35,356 nt of DNA from an uncultured Syntrophaceae bacterium (GCA_964537885.1 CAZIDC010000001.1:1-35356), one strand, 5' to 3'; shown: positions 902 through 33,946, counted from the stretch's first letter. The notes: generated by a model from the sequence alone, not told the origin. Translations and numbers: made by a program.

Positions 902-920
902 TTTTCCCTCTCATCTAACT

Positions 921-1049
921 TTCACCGCAGAGCACGCGGAGAACGCAGAGTTGAAAATGAAAAATTAAAACCCATGCGCTTGACGCTAACCGGTTATAGC
1001 CAATCTATCTATGTCCTTTCCCTGCGCCCTCAGCGCTCTCCGCGGTGAA
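921..1049. repeat. Inverted heptad-array element, family B (core CGCAGAG, termini TTCACCGC / GCGGTGAA)
   Basis: Left arm 921-950 is ttcaccgcagagcacgcggagaacgcagag. Right arm 1021-1049 is cctgcgccctcagcgctctccgcggtgaa. The centre is AT-rich. The element lies between the NuoF::GltD stop (1059) and the fdhA start (901). Confidence 0.85.
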
Positions 1050-1058
1050 ATAATGTTT

Positions 1059-4662: not shown

Positions 4663-4680
4663 CTTTCCTCCTTAAGAACA

Positions 4681-4768
4681 GCAATCAGCTGTCAGCGGTC
4701 AGCTTTCAGCAAAAAAATAATATGCCCATAGATTTTTTGGCGATCGCTGAATGCTGATTGCTGATCGC
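4681..4768. repeat. Inverted heptad-array element, family A (core TCAGC / GCTGA)
   Basis: Left arm is gcaaTCAGCtgTCAGCggTCAGCttTCAGC followed by an A7 run. Right arm follows a T6 run and reads gGCGATCGCTGAatGCTGAttGCTGAtcgc. It is followed by T7, which abuts the acsE stop. Confidence 0.9.
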
Positions 4769-4774
4769 TTTTTT

Positions 4775-5587
4775 TCATCCTCGGTTCCCTGTCTTCGGTT
4801 TCAACTTTTTTTCTGCTTCCTTAAGGAAATGATCCGAGTAGGGGTGGCGTTCGAGGATGACTTCCGCGGCGGCGGCGGCCTCCAGCAGACAGGGGTCGAG
4901 AATATCGGCGATAACCGTGTCGAGACCGCAGGCCATGGCCATGGTCAGGAAGGTCTGGTTGATCAACCTTCTTTGCTTCGCCCCTTGCGAACAGTTGCTC
5001 AGCCCCACGACAATATGAGGAGGATTTCTTTCCTCGGCAATTACCTGGATGGCCTCGAGGACGATCGGTCCCTCGGTCTGGGAAAATTTTAAGGGGAGGA
5101 GAACGGGATCGATAAACAGCCGGTCCCGGGAAACTCCGTATTCGTCGGCTGTGTCCATGATCCGTTTGGCGATGGCCTGGCGCCCCACGGCATGCGATGG
5201 AATCCCCTGTTCATCCATGGTCAGGCCAACAATAGAGGCTCTATACTTGACAGCCAGTTCCATGAATTTGGCTAATTTTTCTTTATCCCCCGTAGTGGAA
5301 TTGATCATGGATGGATTCTGACATACCTTCAGCCCGGCCTCGATCACATCCAGCCGCCGGCTGTCTACGGCGATGGGCGTGCTGACGATTTCCTGAACGG
5401 TCTGCACTAACCAGACCATGATCTCGGCTGGCTTTAACCAAGCGGTCCCCACATTGAGATCGATGTAAGAAGCTCCGGCATCCGCTTGTCTCCGGGCTAT
5501 ATTCTGGACCGCTTCCTTGTCCTTATCAGCGATGAATTTGCGAACCCCGGGCTGGAGGCCGTTGATTTTTTCCCCGATGAAGATCAT
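4775..5587 (-). CDS. acsE: Methyltetrahydrofolate:corrinoid/iron-sulfur protein methyltransferase (canonical MeTr)
   Basis: Pterin-binding (DHPS-like) barrel. MIFIGEKING ... YIDLNVG ... MINST ... VVGLSNCSQG ... LINQTFLTMAMACGLDTVIAD closely recalls Moorella MeTr as I remember it. The ORF track starts at 5602, where the ATG forms an ATGA overlap with the cooC stop. The homology-like start MIFIGEK is the ATG at 5587. The choice between them is unresolved. Confidence 0.88.
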   Translation of the reverse strand: MIFIGEKINGLQPGVRKFIADKDKEAVQNIARRQADAGASYIDLNVGTAWLKPAEIMVWLVQTVQEIVSTPIAVDSRRLDVIEAGLKVCQNPSMINSTTGDKEKLAKFMELAVKYRASIVGLTMDEQGIPSHAVGRQAIAKRIMDTADEYGVSRDRLFIDPVLLPLKFSQTEGPIVLEAIQVIAEERNPPHIVVGLSNCSQGAKQRRLINQTFLTMAMACGLDTVIADILDPCLLEAAAAAEVILERHPYSDHFLKEAEKKLKPKTGNRG

Positions 5588-5598
5588 GCCTTCAGCCC

Positions 5599-6360
5599 TC
5601 ATTCCCCGATTGCATCTACAATTTTTTCTATGGCTTTTAAAAAATCCGGATTCTCGCCGTAGGGAGGTTTTCCCTCCAGGTCGGCTTCAACTACCCTGAG
5701 ATCATAAGGGAGAAATCCTAAAAATGGGAACCCCGTCATTCTTGATAGAAGGAACTGGCGGTCGGACTCCCCGCGGATTTTGTTTCCCACCAGGCCAATA
5801 TTATGCAGCCCAATGTCTCCCGCCAACTGGCGGATCTTTTGGGCAACCTCCAGACTCCTCTGGCCGGGTTCGACCACTACAATGAGTTTATCTACGGCTT
5901 TGGCCGTTGCCCGTCCCAGATGTTCAACCCCGGCCTCCATGTCGAGAATGACCACTTCCCCCCGGCCTAAAAGAAGATGCGCAACCAGGGTTTTGACCAT
6001 TACGTTTTCCGGGCAAACGCACCCCCCTCCACCTTTCTGGACCGTACCCATGACCATCAGGCGAATTCCATCCTTTTCAAGGGTGTATTTCTCCGGCAGG
6101 TCATCAACCCTCGGATTAATCTTGAAAAAACCCCCCATCGAACCTGATTTGGCTTCCGTACGCTCCTCAATCAGCTCCTTCATCTCGGATATGGGCGTCA
6201 GTCGTTGATCTTTGGGAAAACCGAGGGCTAAAGCAAGGTTGCTCGCCGGATCCGCATCAATGGCCAGTACTTTCTGCCCTCGCAAAGCCAGCACACGGGC
6301 CAGCCCTGCCACAATCGTGGTCTTCCCCACCCCGCCTTTGCCAGTAACTGCCAGTTTCAT
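5599..6360 (-). CDS. cooC: CooC/AcsF-type nickel-insertion ATPase (copy 1)
   Basis: 253 aa. Deviant Walker A GKGGVGKTT, CxC nickel motif GGGGCVCPEN, GGAGA Shine-Dalgarno. Confidence 0.9.
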   Translation of the reverse strand: MKLAVTGKGGVGKTTIVAGLARVLALRGQKVLAIDADPASNLALALGFPKDQRLTPISEMKELIEERTEAKSGSMGGFFKINPRVDDLPEKYTLEKDGIRLMVMGTVQKGGGGCVCPENVMVKTLVAHLLLGRGEVVILDMEAGVEHLGRATAKAVDKLIVVVEPGQRSLEVAQKIRQLAGDIGLHNIGLVGNKIRGESDRQFLLSRMTGFPFLGFLPYDLRVVEADLEGKPPYGENPDFLKAIEKIVDAIGE

Positions 6361-6376
6361 GAATTCTCCAGGCTTT

Positions 6377-6435
6377 GGGCGATAGGCAATGGGCGATAAA
6401 TTCTCCCTTTTCCCTATTGCCTCTGGCCTATCGCC
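6377..6435. repeat. Inverted heptad-array element, family F (core GGCGATA / GGCAATn)
   Basis: Left arm is gGGCGATAGGCAATGGGCGATA. Right arm is ccctattgcctctggcctatcgcc, whose reverse complement is GGCGATAGGCCAGAGGCAATAGGG. The right arm covers the DUF3786 stop codon. Confidence 0.8.
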
Positions 6436-7054
6436 TGTTTTTTATTAATTTCCACACCACCGTCTCCGCCAGGATGACGATGTCTTCCACCGGCAAATAT
6501 TCGCTTACCGAAGCGTCAAAGAGAAAGTTGCCATCGGCCGGGAACTCTTCATCTCCCCTCCATAAAATCAGGCCAAGGGGGACAAAAGGAAACGCCGGGA
6601 CTTTGATCCCGACATCTCCGAAACCGAGAGGTTCTCCCCCCAATTCTTCAGCCGCAGACTTCAAGGCATCCGGATTTCCCCCAAAAAAATTTACCAAAGG
6701 CCCTTGGCAGCGTTTCAGGAAAACGGGATGATAAAAAGCCCCCCCGGGAACTTCGGCGAAAGATACCCATTGCCCAGCCGCAGGGGCTCCGGCGGCCTTT
6801 GTCAAATAATGAAGAACCAGAATTTCTTCCCGGAGAGGAATCGGCCCCTGCCCGTTCTCGGGAGCAATCGATCCGCTGGGGAAGGAAATTAAAATTTCAT
6901 GCCCTAAATACTTCAGCGCAACTCGGGATTCCCCGCCGGGCCCCGGCTCATACCTTCCTCCTCCGCGGGCAGCCCGGTCCCGTAAGTCCGCTTTCGCGAG
7001 ACCCTCCACCGCCATCTGCCGGGCCAACTGGTAATTTTCCTGTTTCGGCAACAT
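6428..7054 (-). CDS. Conserved hypothetical protein, probably the DUF3786 family that accompanies acs clusters
   Basis: 208-aa ORF with protein-like composition, co-directional inside the acs block. The family assignment is from memory of DUF3786 proteins, not from a search. There is no obvious Shine-Dalgarno before ATG 7054. Its last two codons and stop lie inside a repeat arm. Confidence 0.6.
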   Translation of the reverse strand: MLPKQENYQLARQMAVEGLAKADLRDRAARGGGRYEPGPGGESRVALKYLGHEILISFPSGSIAPENGQGPIPLREEILVLHYLTKAAGAPAAGQWVSFAEVPGGAFYHPVFLKRCQGPLVNFFGGNPDALKSAAEELGGEPLGFGDVGIKVPAFPFVPLGLILWRGDEEFPADGNFLFDASVSEYLPVEDIVILAETVVWKLIKNRR

Positions 7055-7058
7055 AAAA

Positions 7059-7164
7059 AGCTATCAGCTTTCAGCCGTCAGCTTTTAGCTAAAACAAAAG
7101 CAAACTATAAGTCTTAATTGCTTTGGTCTCTGCTGATTGCTAATCGCTGACCGCTGATGGCTAT
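7059..7164. repeat. Inverted heptad-array element, family A
   Basis: Left arm is agctaTCAGCttTCAGCcgTCAGCttttagc. Right arm is tGCTGAttGCTAAtcGCTGAccGCTGAtggct. The element ends 3 nt before the TAA stop of the 7167-8048 gene. Confidence 0.9.
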
Positions 7165-7166
7165 CT

Positions 7167-8048
7167 TTACAGTTCCAACCACGAATGGGAATACAGGCTT
7201 TTGCCCAGAAGAACCTTGGTGGTTTTGAAATACTCGATTTCCTTGGGGGTCAGAGTTTTTACATCCGGCTCTTCTCCGTCCATCATCCGGTGGACCAGGC
7301 TGACGATGGCGGACATTCCTCCTTTGGCAAGCATTAGCAATTCCTCATCGTAAGCATCGACGATCGCGGAGTATAGGCCATACTTCATCAGCATTATCAA
7401 ATAGGCTCGGTTTAAAACCGGGCGCAGGTTGGCCGGGGCGCCGTTGGAGATGTTGGACAACCCCACGATGGATTTGGCTTCGGGAGCAATGTCCTTGAGC
7501 ATGGACATGAACTCCAGGCAGGAGAGGACCTGATTGATTTCCACGCTAACCGGGCTGACGATGGGATCGATCCAGATATCCTCGGTGGGGATCCCTAAGT
7601 TATTGGCCTGATAGATGAAATCCACGGCAAGGGACGCTCTCTCGTTGGCGTCCCGCGGCATCCCCTCTTTTCCCCAGAGGAGGCCGATGACGTGGGCATT
7701 ATAATTTTTGGCCATGGGCAACACTTTTTCCAGACGTTCGGGCTGGAGGGATACGGAATTGATCAAAGCCTTCCCTTTATGGACCTTCAGGCCAGCCTCC
7801 ATGGCCGCGGGATTAGTAGTATCCAGGGAAAGGGGTTTGCTCACGACTCCCTGGACCTCCTTCACCAACCAATCCATTACTTCTTCGCCGGCCTTGCGGG
7901 ATGGGCCGATGTTCAGGTCTAAGTAGTCGATGCCCACCTTTTCCTCGTGCTTGGCCATCTCGACGATGGGCTCGGCCCGCCGCTCTTTCATGGCTGGCCC
8001 GATCGTCTTGGACATGATGTTGATGTTCTCACCGACGCAAACAACCAT
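7167..8048 (-). CDS. Divergent pterin-binding methyltransferase paralog (AcsE/MtrH-like)
   Basis: 293 aa. VGENINIMSK ... DYLDLNIGP ... LINSVS ... IVGLSNISNGAP matches the pterin-binding barrel but is clearly diverged from the 4775-5587 copy, and it has an extra C-terminal tail. AAGGAGG Shine-Dalgarno. Confidence 0.8.
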   Translation of the reverse strand: MVVCVGENINIMSKTIGPAMKERRAEPIVEMAKHEEKVGIDYLDLNIGPSRKAGEEVMDWLVKEVQGVVSKPLSLDTTNPAAMEAGLKVHKGKALINSVSLQPERLEKVLPMAKNYNAHVIGLLWGKEGMPRDANERASLAVDFIYQANNLGIPTEDIWIDPIVSPVSVEINQVLSCLEFMSMLKDIAPEAKSIVGLSNISNGAPANLRPVLNRAYLIMLMKYGLYSAIVDAYDEELLMLAKGGMSAIVSLVHRMMDGEEPDVKTLTPKEIEYFKTTKVLLGKSLYSHSWLEL

Positions 8049-8064
8049 CTCTTTCCTCCTTTAA

Positions 8065-8160
8065 AAGCAGCATACAGCAACCAGCGATCGGCAATCAGCC
8101 CAAATAAGAAAGATTATTTAATTGCTTAAGCTGAAAGCTGATTGCTGAAAGCTGACCGCT
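8065..8160. repeat. Inverted heptad-array element, family A (left arm more degenerate, CAGC core)
   Basis: Left arm is aagcagcatacagcaaccagcgatcggcaatcagcc. Right arm is ttgcttaaGCTGAaaGCTGAttGCTGAaaGCTGAccgct. Confidence 0.85.
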
Positions 8161-8164
8161 ATTT

Positions 8165-9517
8165 TTATTCCGGTTTCCACATCTTCAGGAAGGCCGGGAT
8201 GTGGCCGGCTTCCCTCGGCCCGATAGAGATTTTCCAATCGGGTAATTCTTCCTCCAGCTCCCCGCTGATAACGGCTGCATAACCGGGGATGATCAGCTTG
8301 CGGTGTTTTACCTTATCGGCGATCCCGCACTTTTTCACGAAGGGAGCAATGAGGTCGGCGCTGAACTTGCCCGCCGCCCATGCGGTCATGACCGACAATC
8401 CTTCCGTGTCCTTGACTAAAAGCCAGCAGGGTACACGGCTGCCTTCGATCTCTCCCGAAACGATGAAATAAGTCAATGAGAAGTTGGAGGTAATCAGAAC
8501 GGGGGAGTTCTCGCCCGGCCCGCCAATTTCGTATATTCCTTCGCTCGTGGCCATCGGCCGCTGCGGGTCGGTGTAGAGGTTCATCCGCTCCAGCAGGATC
8601 GGGAAAAGGCTATGGCCATCGATGTCCGAAAGAACCACGAGTCCGCCGTATTTGGCCACGAAGAGAGATGCCAGGAGCGCCTCTTTCATCGGATCGTCGG
8701 TCATCTCGCAGGGGAAGGTAATCGTCGGGAAACCTAAAGGGCGGAACTTTTTAACCAGTGCCGCCCGCCGGATGACAATCTGATCCTCCAGGGCCTTGCG
8801 GGTCGTTCGCGCCCCGGAATCCAGCACCAAGTCTTTCAGACCGGCCGCGGTCAATTTGTTGGTCAGCTCGACCAGCTCGTCCAGGCTTTTCCCCTTGACG
8901 GCGAGAGGCGCGGCAATCTCTTTGGCTAACTGGGCCATGGGCTCGGCATTCGCTTGGGTCGCGGCATAAAGCAGCGGTTTGCGGTCGGCGCAGGCTCTGG
9001 CCCCGGCCCCAAGGACCTTGGGGTCTTCGCTCATTAAAACCATCCCTTTGCCGTTAACCTTTTCTTTCACTTTTTTCACAAAGGCTTCGAATGCGGCCGG
9101 GTCCCCCGATTCTCCCTTGAGGGCCACGAGGTCGGCTTGCAGCGTCAGCCCTACCCGCTCGAACTTCAATTCCCTCAGTTTCTTCAGGCGTCCCTCTACT
9201 TCGGCATCGCTCATCTTGTCCGAAACAAGAACCGCAATCCCCGTAGGGTTGACGAAACGTTTTTCGTGGCGGAACATGACGGTCTCGCCGCCGATCTTCA
9301 ATGCCTTATCTCCAGTGCCAATGGTCAAGGGGCGAATGGGGGGCGCGGAAGCCTCTTCCAATGCCGCTTTGGCCTCTTCGGATACATGGGGACACGCGGA
9401 TAGCTCCGCCTGCCCGGCGGCTAACTTCATGGCAAAGGCGAGGCAGGTGGGCACGCCGCACTCTCCGCAGTTGGTCTTCGGAAGCTTTTTGAATATCTCA
9501 ATTCCTGTCAGGGCCAT
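8165..9517 (-). CDS. acsC: Corrinoid iron-sulfur protein, large subunit
   Basis: 450 aa. N-terminal 4Fe-4S motif CGECGVPTCLAFAMKL ... ACPH. The size matches AcsC. AAGGAG Shine-Dalgarno. Confidence 0.93.
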   Translation of the reverse strand: MALTGIEIFKKLPKTNCGECGVPTCLAFAMKLAAGQAELSACPHVSEEAKAALEEASAPPIRPLTIGTGDKALKIGGETVMFRHEKRFVNPTGIAVLVSDKMSDAEVEGRLKKLRELKFERVGLTLQADLVALKGESGDPAAFEAFVKKVKEKVNGKGMVLMSEDPKVLGAGARACADRKPLLYAATQANAEPMAQLAKEIAAPLAVKGKSLDELVELTNKLTAAGLKDLVLDSGARTTRKALEDQIVIRRAALVKKFRPLGFPTITFPCEMTDDPMKEALLASLFVAKYGGLVVLSDIDGHSLFPILLERMNLYTDPQRPMATSEGIYEIGGPGENSPVLITSNFSLTYFIVSGEIEGSRVPCWLLVKDTEGLSVMTAWAAGKFSADLIAPFVKKCGIADKVKHRKLIIPGYAAVISGELEEELPDWKISIGPREAGHIPAFLKMWKPE

Positions 9518-9537
9518 ATCTCACTCCTTTTCTTAAA

Positions 9538-9620
9538 GCGATCAGCAGTCAGCTATCAGCTCTCAGCGAAATTAAAAATTTATTTCTTGCTGATCGCTGA
9601 CTGCTGATGGCTGATTGCTG
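9538..9620. repeat. Inverted heptad-array element, family A
   Basis: Left arm is gcgaTCAGCagTCAGCtaTCAGCtcTCAGCgaaa. Right arm is tttcttGCTGAtcGCTGActGCTGAtgGCTGAttgctg. It is followed by T7, which overlaps the acsB TGA. Confidence 0.9.
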
Positions 9621-9626
9621 TTTTTT

Positions 9627-11837
9627 TCAAAACAATGACGGCAGGGAAAGCGCCGGGTGGCCTTTTTCCGTCAGGAAGGGAAGAATCTCGTCTTCCGTCG
9701 TCCCGATCGTCTCATCAGCGATCATCTCCGGGAAGTTGGGGATGCCGATTCCCTCCGCCAGCTTCTTCAGACGGTCCATGATCTCCTCTTTGAGCATTTT
9801 GGGCATCCACACCAAGCGTTTGATGCCCCCCTCGGCCATGATGAACTTCTTGCTGCAGATATAATGTTTACTGTGCCCGACAAAACCCGGCGTTACCGAT
9901 CCGCCGCCAACAGAGCCGGCCAGGGTCGTGAACTTCATCCCGCAGGGGGTCATGCCGGTATAGTCCCGGTTAACGGTCATAATCCCGTTGCACATGGGCA
10001 GCACCGCGGCGATGCACTCGAAACAGCCGCAGGAAGTCATCGGGTCCACCATAATGCTGTAGGCATTGTACTTTTCCAGTTTTTGGCGGGAGGCCTTGAA
10101 AACAAAATCATTGACCCCTTTCCACTGCCCCAGAACTGGGTCAATCACTTCACCCTTGACCACGGGCTGGTTCGGTCCCGTGGGGTTGATCTCGTTGGAG
10201 GCTTTGCCGTCCAGCCAGTTGTAGGCTCCGCAAAGCCCCGTGCGCTCCGGAGTGATGATGCAAACGTGGGTTGGGGCAAAGGACTGGCAGAGCGTGCAGG
10301 AGTAGAAAGTCTCTTCGGACTCGTCGGTCATCCCTTCGATACGGGCATCGCGCTTCTGGTAGACTTTGCGGGCCTGTTCCAGAATCTCCTTCACCTTCTT
10401 TTCCTCGGTATAGATCTTCACCTGCACTTTGTCGAAGATCGATCCGAAGTCCTGGTGGTATTTGGCGTGGAGGATATCCCCTATATGCCTCAGGGTAAAC
10501 CCTTTTTCCACGGCCCCCTTGCCGATGCGGACCCAGGCGATATCCCGCTGCCCGATATGCATCAGCCCCTGGGCATAGTTGACCAGATGGTGGATCTGCC
10601 GTTCCAGGATGGGTTCAAAATCCTCCTGCATCTGCCGGCCGGCCACTTCGGCCACGATGGCCAGGGGAAGTTTGGCCGGGGGCGTTACATCCTTGATGTC
10701 CGGGCCGATGACTTCGACTTTTCCGTCCTCTACCTCATTCATACCTTTGGTTGTGGTCCATTCACAGGCGATGGATCGCCCACCGCCGCACTCTAAGTAA
10801 ATATCTTCTCCCCGGATGCGCTCCCCCTCAAAAGCCGGGCCATAAGCCACGGGGACATTCACGGTGGAAACCGACACCTTGAGGCCTCGAACTTCGATGG
10901 ATTTCTGAGGCATCTCCCGATGGAGCACGTTGGCTACCACGTGCTCATAAGTGCATACCCCGGTGGGTAAAATTTCGGGAATGTCCGTATCGGCTATGGT
11001 CGGAAAGCCCCAGTTCACGCATCCAGCGGCATTGGCGGCCCACTCGGCATTCACTTCCCCCAGGGCGTTAACAAAGGCAAAGATCCGGTCTTTATTATAT
11101 AAAAGGATCTTTCGATAATCCCCCGGTTTTACCCCTCCGAAAGCCATGGCCGCCCGGTTGGCAAAACCCAGGGCAAAGACCGCGGCGGAGATATCCGGGC
11201 CAAAAGGAACCAGGCGGGTATTCCACCCGATCTGCACCCCGGCCTGTAAGAGCTGTTCGGAAAAGGTGGTCCCGTTCTGGTTAGCCGCCATAAATACGTA
11301 GAGGTTCTTTTTCTGATATTCCTCGGCAATCCATTTGGCCGTCTCGGGGTCCGGGGCGGCGCCGACAATGGCGGCAAAGCCCGGTGCTGTTCCATCGACA
11401 AACTGGATTCCCCGTTTGCGAAAGACCGTATCTTCGGCGGCCCCGAGCCAGATTTTTCCCCCCGCTTCGTCAATCTCCTCGCTCACCAAGTAAAAGCCGG
11501 GGTCCTCCACATAACGGATGGCCTCGACAATCTCCTCGGCCAGAATTGCGGCCATCCCGGCATCCAAGAGCGGACCCAGGAAGGGCAGGTGATGAACATT
11601 TTTAACATGGGGCGGTAAGAGTTTCCTGATAATCTCCAGGGGCTTTTTGGCATCCCCCAAAGTCTTTACCGCAATACCCAGGACAGAATAGATAATGGGC
11701 AGGTAATAGGCGGTGTTGGGAAACTCCAACTTCTGATCCGGGCCATATTTTGCCAGGGCCTTTTTATAGGTTCCTTCGGCTTTGGAAACGATATTGTAGG
11801 CGCCCTGAATGGCGGCAAAAGCAACTAACTTGGACAT
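9627..11837 (-). CDS. acsB: Acetyl-CoA synthase (A-cluster subunit), full-length bacterial type
   Basis: 736 aa. A-cluster ligands SCTLCQSFAPTHVCIITPERTGLCGA and TSCGCFEC (Cys-Gly-Cys). AAGGAGG Shine-Dalgarno. Confidence 0.95.
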   Translation of the reverse strand: MSKLVAFAAIQGAYNIVSKAEGTYKKALAKYGPDQKLEFPNTAYYLPIIYSVLGIAVKTLGDAKKPLEIIRKLLPPHVKNVHHLPFLGPLLDAGMAAILAEEIVEAIRYVEDPGFYLVSEEIDEAGGKIWLGAAEDTVFRKRGIQFVDGTAPGFAAIVGAAPDPETAKWIAEEYQKKNLYVFMAANQNGTTFSEQLLQAGVQIGWNTRLVPFGPDISAAVFALGFANRAAMAFGGVKPGDYRKILLYNKDRIFAFVNALGEVNAEWAANAAGCVNWGFPTIADTDIPEILPTGVCTYEHVVANVLHREMPQKSIEVRGLKVSVSTVNVPVAYGPAFEGERIRGEDIYLECGGGRSIACEWTTTKGMNEVEDGKVEVIGPDIKDVTPPAKLPLAIVAEVAGRQMQEDFEPILERQIHHLVNYAQGLMHIGQRDIAWVRIGKGAVEKGFTLRHIGDILHAKYHQDFGSIFDKVQVKIYTEEKKVKEILEQARKVYQKRDARIEGMTDESEETFYSCTLCQSFAPTHVCIITPERTGLCGAYNWLDGKASNEINPTGPNQPVVKGEVIDPVLGQWKGVNDFVFKASRQKLEKYNAYSIMVDPMTSCGCFECIAAVLPMCNGIMTVNRDYTGMTPCGMKFTTLAGSVGGGSVTPGFVGHSKHYICSKKFIMAEGGIKRLVWMPKMLKEEIMDRLKKLAEGIGIPNFPEMIADETIGTTEDEILPFLTEKGHPALSLPSLF

Positions 11838-11878
11838 GAATCATCCTCCTTTTAGGAATCGTTATGGGTCTTTTAGAT

Positions 11879-13921: not shown

Positions 13922-13960
13922 CCTGTTTTCCTCCTTGCTTGACTGGCAACCGCCAGCGAT

Positions 13961-14902: not shown

Positions 14903-15078
14903 AGCTCCCTCCCTGAAAGACAGTGTTTGTTATTCGTATCAGTGGCTAAATAATGCCTTTTTCTCCAGACTCTTGGTCAATGATCCTCCCCCTTTCTGAA
15001 AAAGATTAGTGTAAAGTGTTGAGCGTCAAATTTTTTAACAGATTTTTATTTCCAAATATCGGCCTATATCCTATTTTC

Positions 15079-15848: not shown

Positions 15849-15914
15849 AAGTGTGAAAGTGTTAGTGTGAGTTTAAAAAAATATTACTGACACTGACACT
15901 CACACTAATCACTG
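15849..15914. repeat. Inverted short-period array element, family D (core AGTGT / ACACT, period 6-7)
   Basis: Left arm is aagtgtgaaagtgttagtgtgagt. Right arm is actgacactgacactcacactaatcactg. The RACo stop codon lies inside the right arm. Confidence 0.8.
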
Positions 15915-17864: not shown

Positions 17865-17878
17865 TTCTGTCTTTTTTT

Positions 17879-17909
17879 ACGCTCTGCGCCGTGCGCTATG
17901 CGTTCTGGC
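17879..17909. repeat. Solo (single-arm) heptad array, family C
   Basis: ACGCTCT GCGCCGT GCGCTAT GCGTTCT, preceded by T7. I found no inverted partner in the 44-nt metF-RACo spacer. Confidence 0.7.
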
Positions 17910-19518: not shown

Positions 19519-19617
19519 ACGCATAGAGCATAGCGCATGGCGCATAGCGTTTAAAACTAAAAAGCTATGCTCTTTGTTCTTCTTTACGCAATGCGCTATG
19601 CGCTATGCGCTCTGCGT
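19519..19617. repeat. Inverted heptad-array element, family C (core GCGCTAT / ATAGCGC)
   Basis: The 32-nt arms are acgcatagagcatagcgcatggcgcatagcgt and acgcaatgcgctatgcgctatgcgctctgcgt. By my count 28 of 32 positions are complementary. The right arm lies inside the mvhD ORF. Confidence 0.9.
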
Positions 19618-20026
19618 ATTTTTTGCTCGGGCTGGGCCCCAGTTGGCGGATCTTTTCAGTCATCTCTCGGGCCACTTCTGCAAAGCGCGGTCCCATGGCT
19701 GCGGACATGTTATACATCTCCAGCCGGTCTCCACCAATCCCGGCATCCTCCAGGATGCGCTTGGCCATAGCCACCCGTTTCTTGGCCCGCAGGTTGCCGG
19801 TGAGGAAGTGGCAGTCGCCCTCCAGGCAACCGGCGACATAAACGCCGTCGGCCCCTTTTTCAAACGCTTCCAGCAGAAAACGGACGTCGATCTTGCCCGT
19901 GCAGGGAATCCGCACGATGCGGATGTTCGCCGGATACTGCAAACGCATGGTTCCGGCAAGATCCGCGGCCGTGTAAGCGCAAAAATGGCAACAAAAAGCG
20001 ATGATCGTCGGCTCGAATTTTTCCAT
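19565..20026 (-). CDS. mvhD: MvhD-like 2Fe-2S electron-transfer subunit
   Basis: CCHFCAY ... CTGK ... GCLEGDCHF. The ATG at 20026 shares one nt with the hdrL stop (TGATG). The last ~20 codons are encoded by a repeat arm. Confidence 0.88.
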   Translation of the reverse strand: MEKFEPTIIAFCCHFCAYTAADLAGTMRLQYPANIRIVRIPCTGKIDVRFLLEAFEKGADGVYVAGCLEGDCHFLTGNLRAKKRVAMAKRILEDAGIGGDRLEMYNMSAAMGPRFAEVAREMTEKIRQLGPSPSKKYAERIAHSALRKEEQRA

Positions 20027-27064: not shown

Positions 27065-27180
27065 ATTCACCGCAGAGCGCGCCGAGGTCGCAGAGAATTT
27101 CTATAATTAAAAAACCGAACGTTGGCTTTTTATAATTTTGTTCATTTACCTCAGCGTTCTCAGCGATCTCTGCGGTGAAT
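27065..27180. repeat. Inverted heptad-array element, family B
   Basis: Left arm is attcaccgcagagcgcgccgaggtcgcagagaa. Right arm is acctcagcgttctcagcgatctctgcggtgaat. The outer 13 bp are perfectly complementary. The termini are the same as in the 921-1049 element. Confidence 0.88.
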
Positions 27181-28944: not shown

Positions 28945-29003
28945 TTCCTATTCCTCCTTTTTTTTAGTTTGCTGAATTCTTTTAAATTCTTTTCGCAGTA
29001 GCG

Positions 29004-29032
29004 ATTAGAAACACCCTTACCTCCTTGGTCAA
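29004..29032 (-). promoter_or_regulatory. Weaker proximal sigma70-like promoter candidate
   Basis: The minus strand reads TTGACC, a 17-nt spacer, then TCTAAT, about 60 nt upstream of the fhs ATG. Confidence 0.3.
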
Positions 29033-29385
29033 AAGGGGTCGGTGCAATCCTTACATGAAGATCATTCCTGGATGTTCCTGACCACCCCCTCCCTGAAAAA
29101 TTTTCCCCTTTTACGATTTACAACCCCGGCTATCCCGATCAAAAAATGCTTGTGGATTTGTTGCCGAAATCTCCTCGTCGCTTTTCCCCCAAAAGGAATT
29201 TTTATTGCCCCTGGACGATTCAGGTTGAATTTTTCAAAGTTGTAATTCGGTCGTTCTGGTTTCAGGCTCTTTCGTGGAGAGAAAAAGATCCGGGGTGAGG
29301 TATGGGTGAAAGAAAAAAGGATGGTGCTTTGTGTCCCCTGTCCTTTTCCCGAATACAAATGCCCAAAAGAACTGTTAAACATCCC

Positions 29386-29417
29386 CCCGGGGCAAAAGTT
29401 TCCTTTTGCCTCTCGGG
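29386..29417 (-). other. Stable RNA hairpin with a GNRA tetraloop inside the putative fhs leader
   Basis: The minus strand reads CCCG-aga-GGCAAAAG-GAAA-CUUUUGCC-c-CGGG. That is an 8-bp perfect stem, a GAAA loop and a 4-bp outer helix. Confidence 0.5.
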
Positions 29418-29548
29418 TTTGAACCGATTTAAACCAGATCAACTTAAAACACTTTAATCAACCTTTGAATCGCCATAAACCTGTAACGGTTTGCGGAACG
29501 AATGGTCTGAGGATGCCCGTTTTTCCAGAGATAAAATTTTTCGCCCGC

Positions 29549-29577
29549 ATTTAACCATATGTGGGATATCTTGTCAA
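29549..29577 (-). promoter_or_regulatory. Sigma70-type promoter with an extended -10, candidate main promoter of the fhs-to-fdhA cluster
   Basis: The minus strand reads TTGACA (29577-29572), then 17 nt (agatatcccacatatgg), then TTAAAT (29554-29549). The TG of the extended -10 sits in the right place. An A-rich stretch (gcgaaaaagc) lies just upstream. Confidence 0.55.
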
Positions 29578-29852
29578 GCTTTTTCGCCTTGAATTCTGCC
29601 GCTCTTTCTTTTTAAATTTCTCTTTTATTAACGCGAGAGTGGAAGGAAATGGAGGCGGGCCGATCCGCTCCAACAATTTTGGCTCTCCTTGCCCGGTTCC
29701 TTGGAAGAATCACCGCCGGATGATGATTCACGAATCACCCTAAAAAAATGGGGGAGACAGGCGATTCTCTCCAAAATAAATCCCCCTAAAAGGGGAAGGT
29801 GTGAAAAAATTCAAATCTGGATGGGGAAAACTCTTCTTGTTGTCCAGGGGTC

Positions 29853-29879
29853 GGAAAAATTCGTCCGCCTGAGGCGGAC
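29853..29879 (-). terminator. Candidate intrinsic terminator downstream of the cNMP-domain gene
   Basis: The minus strand reads GUCCGCC-UCA-GGCGGAC, a 7-bp GC-rich stem, followed by GAAUUUUUCC. The 3-nt loop is the minimum size. Confidence 0.5.
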
Positions 29880-30123
29880 CAAAATCGGGGGGACAGGAAT
29901 GATCCCCAACGGATAATATGCCTTCCGCGAAGGGACGCCGGCAACTTGGAACAAAACCATGTAGATACATAGGGATTGGCCTTCGGGCCTAACCGAAGTT
30001 GATTCCCCTGCCGGCAACAAGGAGAGCACCGCATCATTTTGGCAAGCGAATTTTTCTGGCCCCTGGACATGAGTGAAGCCTCTCTTTTCCCCCTACCCCA
30101 ATTTTTTCACAGCTTCGGGCGGA

Positions 30124-32548: not shown

Positions 32549-32561
32549 GCTTGGCCAAAGA

Positions 32562-32648
32562 AGCCTTCAGCGTTCAGCGATCAGCTTTCAGCTAAAGAAA
32601 GATCATGTTTTTTTTAGCTTTCCGCTGATTGCTGACCGCTGATAGCTG
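32562..32648. repeat. Inverted heptad-array element, family A
   Basis: Left arm is agccTTCAGCgtTCAGCgaTCAGCttTCAGCta. Right arm is tagctttccGCTGAttGCTGAccGCTGAtagctg. It is followed by T5, which overlaps the ftsZ TGA. Confidence 0.9.
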
Positions 32649-32652
32649 TTTT

Positions 32653-33843
32653 TCAATCCGCCTGCTTCCTCAAGAAGGTAGGGATATCGTACTCATCTTC
32701 CCCCACGTGGGCCGGAAAACGGCCTTTATGAAACTTGGCCGGTTTTTCCTGAGCCTCAACGGTCTTCTCCTGGCGGATGAACGTGGGAATATCCCGGTTG
32801 CTTTCCCTGTGGGTAAAGCTGACGACGGTCTTTTCTTGTTCCAGGGCGGAGGCTGGAGATTCAAGCCGGCGCTCTTCCTCTTCCAGCGCTTTTCCGAATC
32901 CCGTGGCAATCACCGTGACCCGCATTTCCTCCCCCAGGTTTTCATCAATTACGGCCCCGAAGATGATGTTGGCATCATCGTGGGCTTCCTCCTGGATGAG
33001 TGAGGAGGCCTCGTTTACCTCGTAGAGGGTCAGGTCGGGCCCCCCCGAAACGTTGATCAAAATCCCCCGGGCTCCAGCGATGGTAATATCCTCCAGCAGA
33101 GGGCTGGAGATGGCCCGTTGGGCGGCTTCGATGGCCCGATTTTCCCCGCTCGCGCACCCTGTCCCCATCAGGGCCAATCCCATTTCCGCCATCACCGTCC
33201 GGACATCGGCGAAATCCAGGTTAATCAAGCCGTGGACCGTAATCAGGTCCGAAATTCCTTTGACGGCCTGGAGCAGGACCTCATCCGCTTTCCGGAACGT
33301 CTCCAGCAAGGGCATATCCCGGCCAGCAATGTTGAGCAATCTCTGATTGGGGATGGTGATCAGCGTGTCCACGCATTTACGAAGTTCTTTGAGCCCTTCT
33401 TCGGCCTGCTGCTGCCTTTTCTTGCCTTCGAAGAGAAACGGTTTGGTGACGACGGCTACCGTAAGCGCCCCCGCATCTTTAGCGATGGAAGCCAGAATCG
33501 GCGCCCCGCCCGTGCCCGTACCGCCACCCATCCCCGCCGTTATGAAGACCATATCGGCGCCACTTAGAATCTCCCGGATCCGGTCTTTGTCCTCCAGGAT
33601 GGCATTTTTCCCAATCTCGGGGTTGGCTCCGGCTCCCAGGCCTTTGGTCAGCTTGGCCCCTAATTGAATCTTGATGGGCGAACCGCAGTTGGCCAGAGCC
33701 TGGGCATCCGTGTTGGCCCCGATAAACTCTACCCCGCTCAAACTGGATTTAATCATGGTGTTAACGGCATTGCATCCCCCGCCCCCGATGCCCACCACTT
33801 TCAAATTGGCCCCTGAATTCCTGCTTTCTTCCAATTCAAACAT
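32653..33843 (-). CDS. ftsZ: Cell division protein FtsZ
   Basis: [13 protein letters not shown] and the tubulin signature [12 protein letters not shown]. The track start is a GTG at 33852. The ATG at 33843 sits 7 nt after GGAGGT. Confidence 0.95.
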
Positions 33844-33866
33844 TCCCCCCACCTCCCTTTTAAATT

Positions 33867-33943
33867 ATTGCGGACTGGCGATTGCGGATTTACGATTCTT
33901 TAATTTTTATTTGCTTTTCGTTCCGCATCCCGCATTCCGAAAT
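33867..33943. repeat. Inverted heptad-array element, family E (core ATTGCGG / CCGCAT)
   Basis: Left arm is ATTGCGG ACTGGCG ATTGCGG ATTTACG. Right arm is cgttccgcatcccgcattccgaaat. The element lies between the ftsA stop and the ftsZ Shine-Dalgarno. Confidence 0.85.
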
Positions 33944-33946
33944 CTT

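Follow-up and report, generated by a model that had tools for sequence, protein, structure and literature searches.

Tandem-unit hairpins docked between stop codons and Shine-Dalgarno sequences in a Wood-Ljungdahl gene cluster of an uncultured Syntrophaceae bacterium

Why do stable hairpins lie directly behind so many stop codons of a tightly packed gene cluster, and do they sort its genes by enzyme complex? The question is raised by a stretch of DNA from an uncultured Syntrophaceae bacterium (GCA_964537885.1, CAZIDC010000001.1), hereafter referred to as the window, which corresponds to bases 1-35,356 of a contig 43 kb in length. The assembly (755 contigs, 3.79 Mb, 52.8% G+C, 93% complete) is fragmented, and repeats may be under-assembled in it. 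All genes of the window are on the minus strand and, according to Pfam, constitute a Wood-Ljungdahl cluster and then ftsZ and ftsA. In order of transcription the cluster reads fhs, folD, hdrC-hdrB-hdrL-mvhD, metV-metF, RACo, cooC, acsD-acsA-acsB and acsC in its first half and, after acsC, a Pterin_bind/CdhD gene (acsE), DUF3786, cooC, a second Pterin_bind gene, nuoE, a NuoF fusion and a NuoG/FdhA-like gene. An earlier note on this DNA described hairpin elements that dock onto stop codons and divide the cluster into enzyme-complex modules. The results presented here show that docking beside stop codons is real, genome-wide, statistically strong and common to all families of repeat unit, and that a division into enzyme-complex modules is not supported.

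Nearly all spacers of at least 59 nt in the window hold a hairpin whose arms are built from tandem short units (Table 1). Each element consists of two inverted arrays of a 6-9-nt unit around an AT-rich centre and is 60-130 nt long as a whole, with arms of 25-35 nt that carry periodic mismatches, loops of 9-30 nt, and stems that are interrupted every 5 bp. With at least three tandem 6-9-nt units per arm and arms that are reverse-complementary, the elements belong to the short-unit inverted-repeat pairs. As RNA of the coding direction, the long copies have fold energies of -38 to -60 kcal/mol, with z-scores ranging from -3.0 to -7.4, and the acsD-acsA-acsB spacers (39 and 41 nt) fold no more strongly than shuffled sequence. 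Rfam gave no matches in the window above the gathering score.

Table 1. Hairpins, arrays and element-free spacers of the window, with fold energies in kcal/mol
Position	Strand	Feature	Junction	Fold	z	Remarks
920-1050	-	CGCAGAG-type 9-nt-unit hairpin	NuoF fusion to NuoG/FdhA-like gene			TTCACCGC termini
4676-4766	-	NNTCAGC heptamer hairpin	Pterin_bind (acsE-like) stop to nuoE start	-40.7	-5.0	gap to stop 8 nt, to start 13 nt
4767-4777	-	stop TGA (4775-4777), then A6 and GC				A-rich terminal unit of the element
6370-6436	-	GGCGATA heptamer hairpin	DUF3786 to cooC	-24.1	-2.5	
7059-7162	-	NNTCAGC hairpin	acsE (Pterin_bind/CdhD) to DUF3786	-41.8	-5.3	
8069-8160	-	degenerate NNTCAGC hairpin	acsC (stop 8165-8167, TAAAAAT) to acsE	-38.4	-3.0	orthologous copy in G012
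9537-9619	-	NNTCAGC hairpin	acsB (stop 9627-9629, TGA+A6+C) to acsC	-42.9	-7.0	
11838-11878	-	element-free spacer, 41 nt	acsA to acsB	-3.2	+0.5	orthologues in G014 and G016 filled
13922-13960	-	element-free spacer, 39 nt	acsD to acsA			single NNTCAGC-type array in G014 orthologue
15850-15906	-	CAGTGT hexamer-armed hairpin	RACo to cooC	-18.8	-3.6	
17875-17908	-	lone heptamer array, no partner arm	metF to RACo			44-nt spacer
19519-19617	-	GCATAGC hairpin	mvhD to metV	-59.5	-6.1	metV Shine-Dalgarno AGGAGG 4 nt past 3' arm
27065-27180	-	second 9-nt-unit (CGCAGAG-type) hairpin	fhs to folD	-53.6	-7.4	
32562-32647	-	NNTCAGC hairpin	ftsZ (stop 32653-32655) to radical-SAM gene	-43.6	-6.6	
33853-33946	-	CGGAATG heptamer hairpin	fills the ftsA to ftsZ spacer	dG -20.5		best period 7

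The position of such hairpins was analyzed throughout the genome using 3,297 genes predicted by a simple codon-usage caller, whose stops are exact and whose starts and start-side gaps are approximate. Hairpins were detected by local self-complement alignment of intergenic regions of up to 600 nt, and arrays were also paired by period. This resulted in 75 periodic-armed hairpins (unit 6-9 nt) and 223 others. Period-7 arrays were enriched in non-coding DNA (308, versus 31-116 at control periods). The periodic-armed hairpins lay between co-directional genes in 64 cases, between convergent genes in nine and between divergent genes in two, against a background of 73, 13 and 14%, respectively. For the 64 co-directional copies the median gap to the upstream stop codon was 6 nt, versus 53 nt for 163 other co-directional hairpins, and the median start gaps were 18 and 52 nt, respectively. 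The earlier note had proposed a genome-wide test of the stop-to-element distance, and docking withstood it: the stop gap was 10 nt or less in 61% of the 64 periodic-armed copies versus 17% of the 163 others, and a stop codon is located within 15 nt upstream of 67% of the former. NNTCAGC copies for which both neighbours were called were all co-directional (16/16), with a median stop gap of 6 nt and a gap of at most 8 nt in 14 of the 16. The one apparent outlier among NNTCAGC copies, on contig C96, seems to follow a small uncalled open reading frame (ORF) that ends TAG-aaac-AGC.

The size of the host spacers is informative as well. The residual spacer was 40 nt or shorter in 61% of hosts. A null in which insertion is proportional to spacer length predicts 3.3% (binomial p ~1e-48), and one in which all junctions are equally likely predicts 45%. 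The elements thus follow a pattern of roughly one per junction, independent of spacer size. Among the 43 hosts with 20 nt of slack or more, 18 had a stop gap not exceeding 8 nt, versus 8.6 expected (P = 0.0004).

At the junctions of the window, the statement of the earlier note that elements begin 0-10 nt past the stop agrees with array-defined gaps of 8, 7, 3 and 1 nt, and of 4 nt for the copy at 8069-8160. A recurrent junction of TGA, an A5-A7 run and the arm is present, but its A5-A7 holds only when the A of TGA is counted; as read, the junctions are TGA+A6+GC-arm (4775-4777), TGA+A6+C-arm (9627-9629) and TGA+A4+C-arm (32653-32655). The acsC stop (8165-8167) forms, as described, the junction TAA+AAAT-arm. 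Intact NNTCAGC copies end AAAAACAGC...GCTGTTTTT, so that a run is present on both strands, and the A-run therefore belongs to the NNTCAGC element. The element at 7059-7162 is separated from its stop by 4 nt, and its 3' arm is followed by TTTT and then ATG. On the downstream side the arms had been placed too far from the Shine-Dalgarno (SD) sequence: the distance is not 10-25 nt but 4-9 nt to the SD, and 7-22 nt to the start codon. Examples are GCTGTTCTT-AAGGAGG and GCTGCTTTTA-AAGGAGG; the SD is not clear at two junctions (7055-7166 and 32549-32652).

The cluster was compared with that of 11 same-family genomes, whose AcsC is 79-89% identical. These are relatives and not independent samples; close ones carry labels such as Deltaproteobacteria bacterium SM23_61, and the loci of G013 and G008 look fragmented, with many partial gene matches. 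A stable hairpin was present between acsB and acsC and between acsC and acsE in 11 of the 11 genomes. The hairpin type at these two junctions varies, being NNTCAGC, the CAGTGT hexamer, an AGGTCA-like hexamer, the REP-like GTAGGGGCG (REP, repetitive extragenic palindromic) or G/C-rich, and the acsC-acsE copy is recognisably orthologous between the genome studied here (G000) and G012. Some junctions that are empty in the window are filled elsewhere, namely acsA-acsB in G014 (hexamer type) and G016 (REP-like) and hdrC-hdrB in G016; at acsD-acsA, G014 has a single array only. The metF-RACo junction is unfilled in G013, where it reads TAA-ggagctt-ATG, and filled in G016, where it reads TAA-[aaaacgc...gctgttga]-aggggtt-ATG, the insert being located exactly between stop and SD. 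The mvhD-metV junction of G013 was considered as another empty site, which proved false once the end of the ORF was read. A further observation concerns the acsC-acsE junction of G016 (locus L009/L016), which holds two complete NNTCAGC hairpins in tandem within one spacer of 201 nt; this pair suggests that elements insert beside existing ones or duplicate next to them.

These data bear directly on the proposed enzyme-complex modules. Re-reading of the sequence confirmed the tight junctions on which the proposal was based: nuoE and nuoF share 8 nt, an ATGA overlap joins cooC to Pterin_bind and metV to metF, TGATG joins hdrL to mvhD, and the spacers are 14 and 13 nt in hdrC-hdrB-hdrL and 39 and 41 nt in acsD-acsA-acsB. 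The rule that no element lies within a single complex failed, however. The element at 920-1050 splits the NuoF-like from the NuoG/FdhA-like gene, and the one at 19519-19617 splits mvhD from metV; formate dehydrogenases of the FdsABG type form a single complex, as does Hdr-MvhD-MetFV in Moorella. The genes acsC and acsD, which encode the partners of the corrinoid iron-sulfur protein (CoFeSP), are kept apart by acsA, acsB and an element. Nor does the partition hold in the relatives, in view of the filled acsA-acsB and hdrC-hdrB junctions mentioned above. The junctions that are empty in every genome compared are those with overlapping or near-abutting genes, at which an insertion would break an ORF or the coupling. 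We therefore favour the reading that the filling of junctions reflects history and tolerance, and that complex membership is not the deciding factor.

A view of the junction beyond the family was obtained from 79 more distant genomes that have a comparable acsC, in which the spacer after acsC has a median length of 11 nt (interquartile range 10-17) and is without a hairpin in 71. Given that most of these genomes have a hairpin-free spacer of ~11 nt, the hairpins are lineage-specific insertions into a slot without slack. Of the eight that do have a hairpin after acsC, at least four show tandem-unit arms; seven of the eight are labelled as metagenome-assembled genomes (MAGs) of Delta-/Proteobacteria, Desulfobacterales, Syntrophaceae or Syntrophobacterales, and one as a Latescibacterota MAG. 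In a packed operon the only transcribed gap in which an insertion of ~100 nt would survive is that from a stop to the next SD, and genes that overlap and are translationally coupled could not take such an insert. With an ancestral gap of ~10 nt, an element placed in it would necessarily lie against both the stop and the SD, which is what appears as docking. We consider docking to be best explained by geometry and selection, that is, by an insert of ~100 nt in a slot of ~10 nt, with some target preference of the elements being possible.

[quoted passage not shown] PF05635 genes were present in 17 of 17 genomes of the family (1-15 each), versus 1 of 14 control genomes, and 18 of the 23 examined in the family were surrounded by complementary tandem-unit arms. 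The cassettes are 430-600 nt long and adjoin the flanking ORFs as the gene-less hairpins do, and their arm families (CAGTGT, GGTTATG, CGTAAGG, GAGTTGG and octamers) are those of the gene-less hairpins. None of the window elements contains an ORF, so that they are not themselves PF05635 cassettes and would be, at most, gene-less derivatives of these. No published description of a link between tandem-unit hairpins and PF05635 cassettes was found in a literature search. PF05635 is similar to Avd, an accessory protein found with diversity-generating retroelements (PMC10053308). The genome contains a single reverse-transcriptase (PF00078) gene, a 440-aa ORF at G000:C28:12765-13406.

The window elements were also compared with other classes of mobile or repeated DNA. 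They share with REPs that they are multicopy, extragenic and rare in divergent regions (75 copies, 2 divergent). They are not REP/BIME (bacterial interspersed mosaic element) palindromes, as they are 60-130 nt long and their NNTCAGC arms begin (A)nC-AGC, without a GTAG. A REP type mobilised by a REP-associated tyrosine (Y1) transposase (RAYT) was likewise rejected: the only hit of a search with PF01797 was a truncated IS200-like fragment (C330, profile positions 56-121) that lacks neighbouring arrays, which at a genome completeness of 93% falls short of proving absence. Against MITEs (miniature inverted-repeat transposable elements) speak the loops, which are not conserved, the absence of a duplication at the empty and filled metF-RACo site, and the fact that no matching insertion sequence was found. 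Integron attC sites were discarded since AAAAAAC/GTTTTTT, the termini found here, are at odds with the RYYYAAC/GTTRRRY boxes of such sites.

Together, these results lead us to the view that the window elements are probably gene-less foldback repeats that are tolerated in the slot between stop and SD and whose turnover follows history, rather than a device that sorts genes by complex. Their full-length relatives would carry a small PF05635 gene between the same kinds of arms. By analogy with REPs and with the RNase III excision of rRNA intervening sequences, effects on segmental mRNA stability or processing are plausible: as RNA, hairpins of -38 to -60 kcal/mol would probably act as barriers to 3'-exonucleases or as processing sites for RNase III, and those no more than ~15 nt from a stop may impede ribosomes that terminate there. 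Several observations weigh against the view of tolerated foldback repeats. Loop sequences differ among copies, as do the variable dinucleotides of the units, unlike in typical MITEs or REPs. Neither mobility machinery nor a target-site duplication was found. Clear NNTCAGC arms are missing from all 23 PF05635 cassettes examined, TCAGTCA being the nearest type, so that the link is indirect for the NNTCAGC family. Selection of a hairpin could instead account for the occupancy of certain junctions in 11 of 11 relatives. Finally, the start-side gaps are approximate, and when 14 nt were reserved for the SD, placement was no longer specific for the stop: the stop side was snug in 7 of 28 hosts versus 5.0 expected, and the SD side equally so, in 10 of 28 (P = 0.014).

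Full occupancy is also an argument for the alternative that the hairpins are selected intercistronic RNA punctuation, which would set segmental mRNA stability or uncouple translation between modules of the operon. The hairpins between acsB and acsC and between acsC and acsE persist in 11 of 11 relatives despite a change of family, so that structure, not sequence, is perhaps what is selected; they are moreover very stable, most are followed by a strong AAGGAGG SD, and REPs and rRNA intervening sequences set precedents for stabilisation and RNase III processing. Punctuation as the reason for the presence of the elements seems unlikely to us. Single complexes are split in the window (nuoF-fdhA, mvhD-metV), acsA-acsB and hdrC-hdrB are filled in relatives, and the same elements occur with PF05635 cargo and in unrelated operons. 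In addition, no hairpin occupies the acsC junction in 71 of the 79 other genomes, which make do with a spacer of ~11 nt; the pathway therefore does not need such punctuation.

A further reading is that the elements represent an undescribed PF05635-linked foldback class that actively homes to the stop-SD gap of translated operons, with beaded stems that are cut or bound as rRNA intervening sequences are, operon transcripts that are segmented as a result, and a reliance of the host on them that lies behind the full occupancy of some junctions throughout the family. We regard this reading as doubtful. The beads refer to the stems of the NNTCAGC type, for which pairing was counted in the copies at 4676-4766, 7059-7162, 9537-9619 and 32562-32647, in 14 other copies of the genome and in 12 of relatives. 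In a core-anchored comparison, the five core positions were paired in 94% of cases, and the variable positions were Watson-Crick complementary in 17%, versus 29% in shuffled sequence and 26-34% in registers shifted by one or two units. This deficit is significant (P<0.0002; 0.016 in this genome alone). Since the core pairs and the variable positions mostly do not, the NNTCAGC stem is a series of 5-bp helices separated by 2x2 mismatches. Mismatches thus seem to be favoured in stems of the NNTCAGC type.

The same deficit argues against microsatellites grown in place, in which replication slippage would generate the arrays and template switching would match the arms, with no movement between loci. 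Template switching gives perfect arms, whereas the NN positions of NNTCAGC are less complementary than chance. Such growth would account for the variation in unit number and NN positions between copies, for the orthologous copies of G000 and G012, which differ mainly at variable positions, and for the unpaired single arrays at metF-RACo in the window, at acsD-acsA in G014 and at hdrC-hdrB in G016. It does not account for one unit family recurring at many unlinked junctions, for favoured families that differ by genome, or for PF05635 genes enclosed by the same arm families, and we hold it to be very unlikely.

Intrinsic terminators, bidirectional or directed mainly against antisense transcription into the operon, are highly improbable: intact NNTCAGC copies do consist of A-run, hairpin and T-run, and upstream A-runs with downstream T-runs are common and the reverse rare (5' T-run in 3 of 64), but runs of at least 4 occur in only 25-36% of copies and do not differ significantly between the sides, the long mismatched arms and 9-30-nt loops are non-canonical (a consensus scan matched sub-hairpins only), and a chain of some twelve efficient sense terminators would shut off the distal part of an essential pathway's genes. 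Genome-wide, a stop-side A-run of at least 4 was found in 23 of 64 copies and a start-side T-run of at least 4 in 16 of 64 (Wilcoxon p = 0.24), the baseline for an A-run after any stop being 19%. The plus-strand T5-T7 reported by the earlier note to follow the hairpins is thus present at four window copies and does not reflect a general asymmetry among the 64. The form of an intrinsic terminator, a compact GC-rich stem with a 3-8-nt loop and a direct U-tract, was not recovered, in view of the 9-30-nt loops and a sense T-run in only 16 of 64 copies.

Repeats with some of these properties are known from other bacteria. The REP/BIME elements of E. coli, reportedly described by Higgins in 1982 and Newbury in 1987, are dispersed extragenic palindromes in transcribed spacers, many of them close after a stop, and their proposed roles are stabilisation of upstream mRNA and interference with terminating ribosomes. 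They differ from the elements described here in being 20-40 nt long, with a GTAG head and RAYT, instead of 60-130 nt with tandem-unit arms and no GTAG. According to Liang et al. 2015, as relayed in PMC12306157, 260 of 496 E. coli REPs lie within 15 nt of a stop and lower upstream translation. Another parallel is offered by Xanthomonas and Nostoc (Rehm et al. 2015, PMC4692102), where inverted tandem heptamers able to form stem-loops prefer aligned ORFs, are rare between divergent ones, and lie at most 50 bp from a stop or start. In Xanthomonas, GGGAATC forms 70-75 convergent heptamer pairs per genome, located no more than 50 bp from stops, and the repeats of both Xanthomonas and Nostoc are mostly transcribed. 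Their units are rich in G and were regarded as quadruplex formers, whereas the units here are not G-tracts and their positions are resolved to a few nt. In Geobacter metallireducens, of a genus that was classed with the Deltaproteobacteria, as are the relatives by label, class 1-3 'global regulator binding sites' were read as DNA that binds IHF/HU (Aklujkar et al. 2009, PMC2700814). These are multicopy intergenic pairs on opposite strands of 3-5 tandem 7-9-nt units (e.g. MTYCTGA x5), with other unit sequences, and neither docking at stops nor a cassette link was reported for them. The 23S rRNA intervening sequences of Coxiella and Leptospira that carry an S23p/PF05635 ORF have terminal inverted repeats and a long stem, and the same protein family occupies the loop of the full-length elements here; they lie inside 23S rRNA helices, whereas the present elements lie between protein genes and mostly lack an ORF. 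The Coxiella sequence has tandem heptamers in its 5' region and is excised by RNase III (PMC4990558). Finally, the TAACTGA repeats of Beggiatoaceae (PMC4679880) and the short tandemly repeated repetitive (STRR) sequences of cyanobacteria are also lineage-specific, intergenic tandem heptamers beside gene ends; TAACTGA repeats are direct and end just upstream of starts, with 1 inverted in 170, whereas an inverted pair is the rule here. The elements of the window thus join, as new examples, a poorly understood kind already known in Xanthomonas and Geobacter.

A few features of individual elements and junctions are of interest in their own right. No stop codon of mvhD precedes the element behind it; the ORF runs through the 5' arm, which gives the protein the tail YAERIAHSALRKEEQRA, and ends at a TAG (19565-19567) in the loop, and the A-run ahead of this arm corresponds to conserved Lys-Lys codons (window 19565-19640). 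Read-through of mvhD into an element also occurs in G016 and G013, with other heptamers. In the 3' arms of NNTCAGC elements, three consecutive GCTGANN units place a TGA in all three frames, because 7 mod 3 = 1, and a ribosome that enters such an element would therefore be halted before the next SD. The CAGTGT hexamer equals the heptamer TGTCAGC minus one C (loci L002, L003 and L017; G014, G001), and the hexamer and heptamer families may be related, in that a single base was lost and the array then became homogenised. Periodic-armed hairpins were not found in the 176-nt cooC-acsD spacer (14903-15078) or in the ~1.2 kb upstream of fhs (28945-30123), and these two regions are the likeliest sites of promoters inside the cluster.

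The link to PF05635 cassettes provides a concrete candidate protein for elements of this kind. If the elements are tolerated passengers, they would explain the ~100-nt spacers of these operons, ORFs that end inside repeats, such as mvhD, and the fragmented assemblies of these lineages, and recognising them would be of value for annotation. If their RNA undergoes processing or hinders decay, the roughly twelve sites of this kind along one Wood-Ljungdahl operon of 30 kb would influence the proportions of subunits in the central energy pathway of abundant sediment bacteria.

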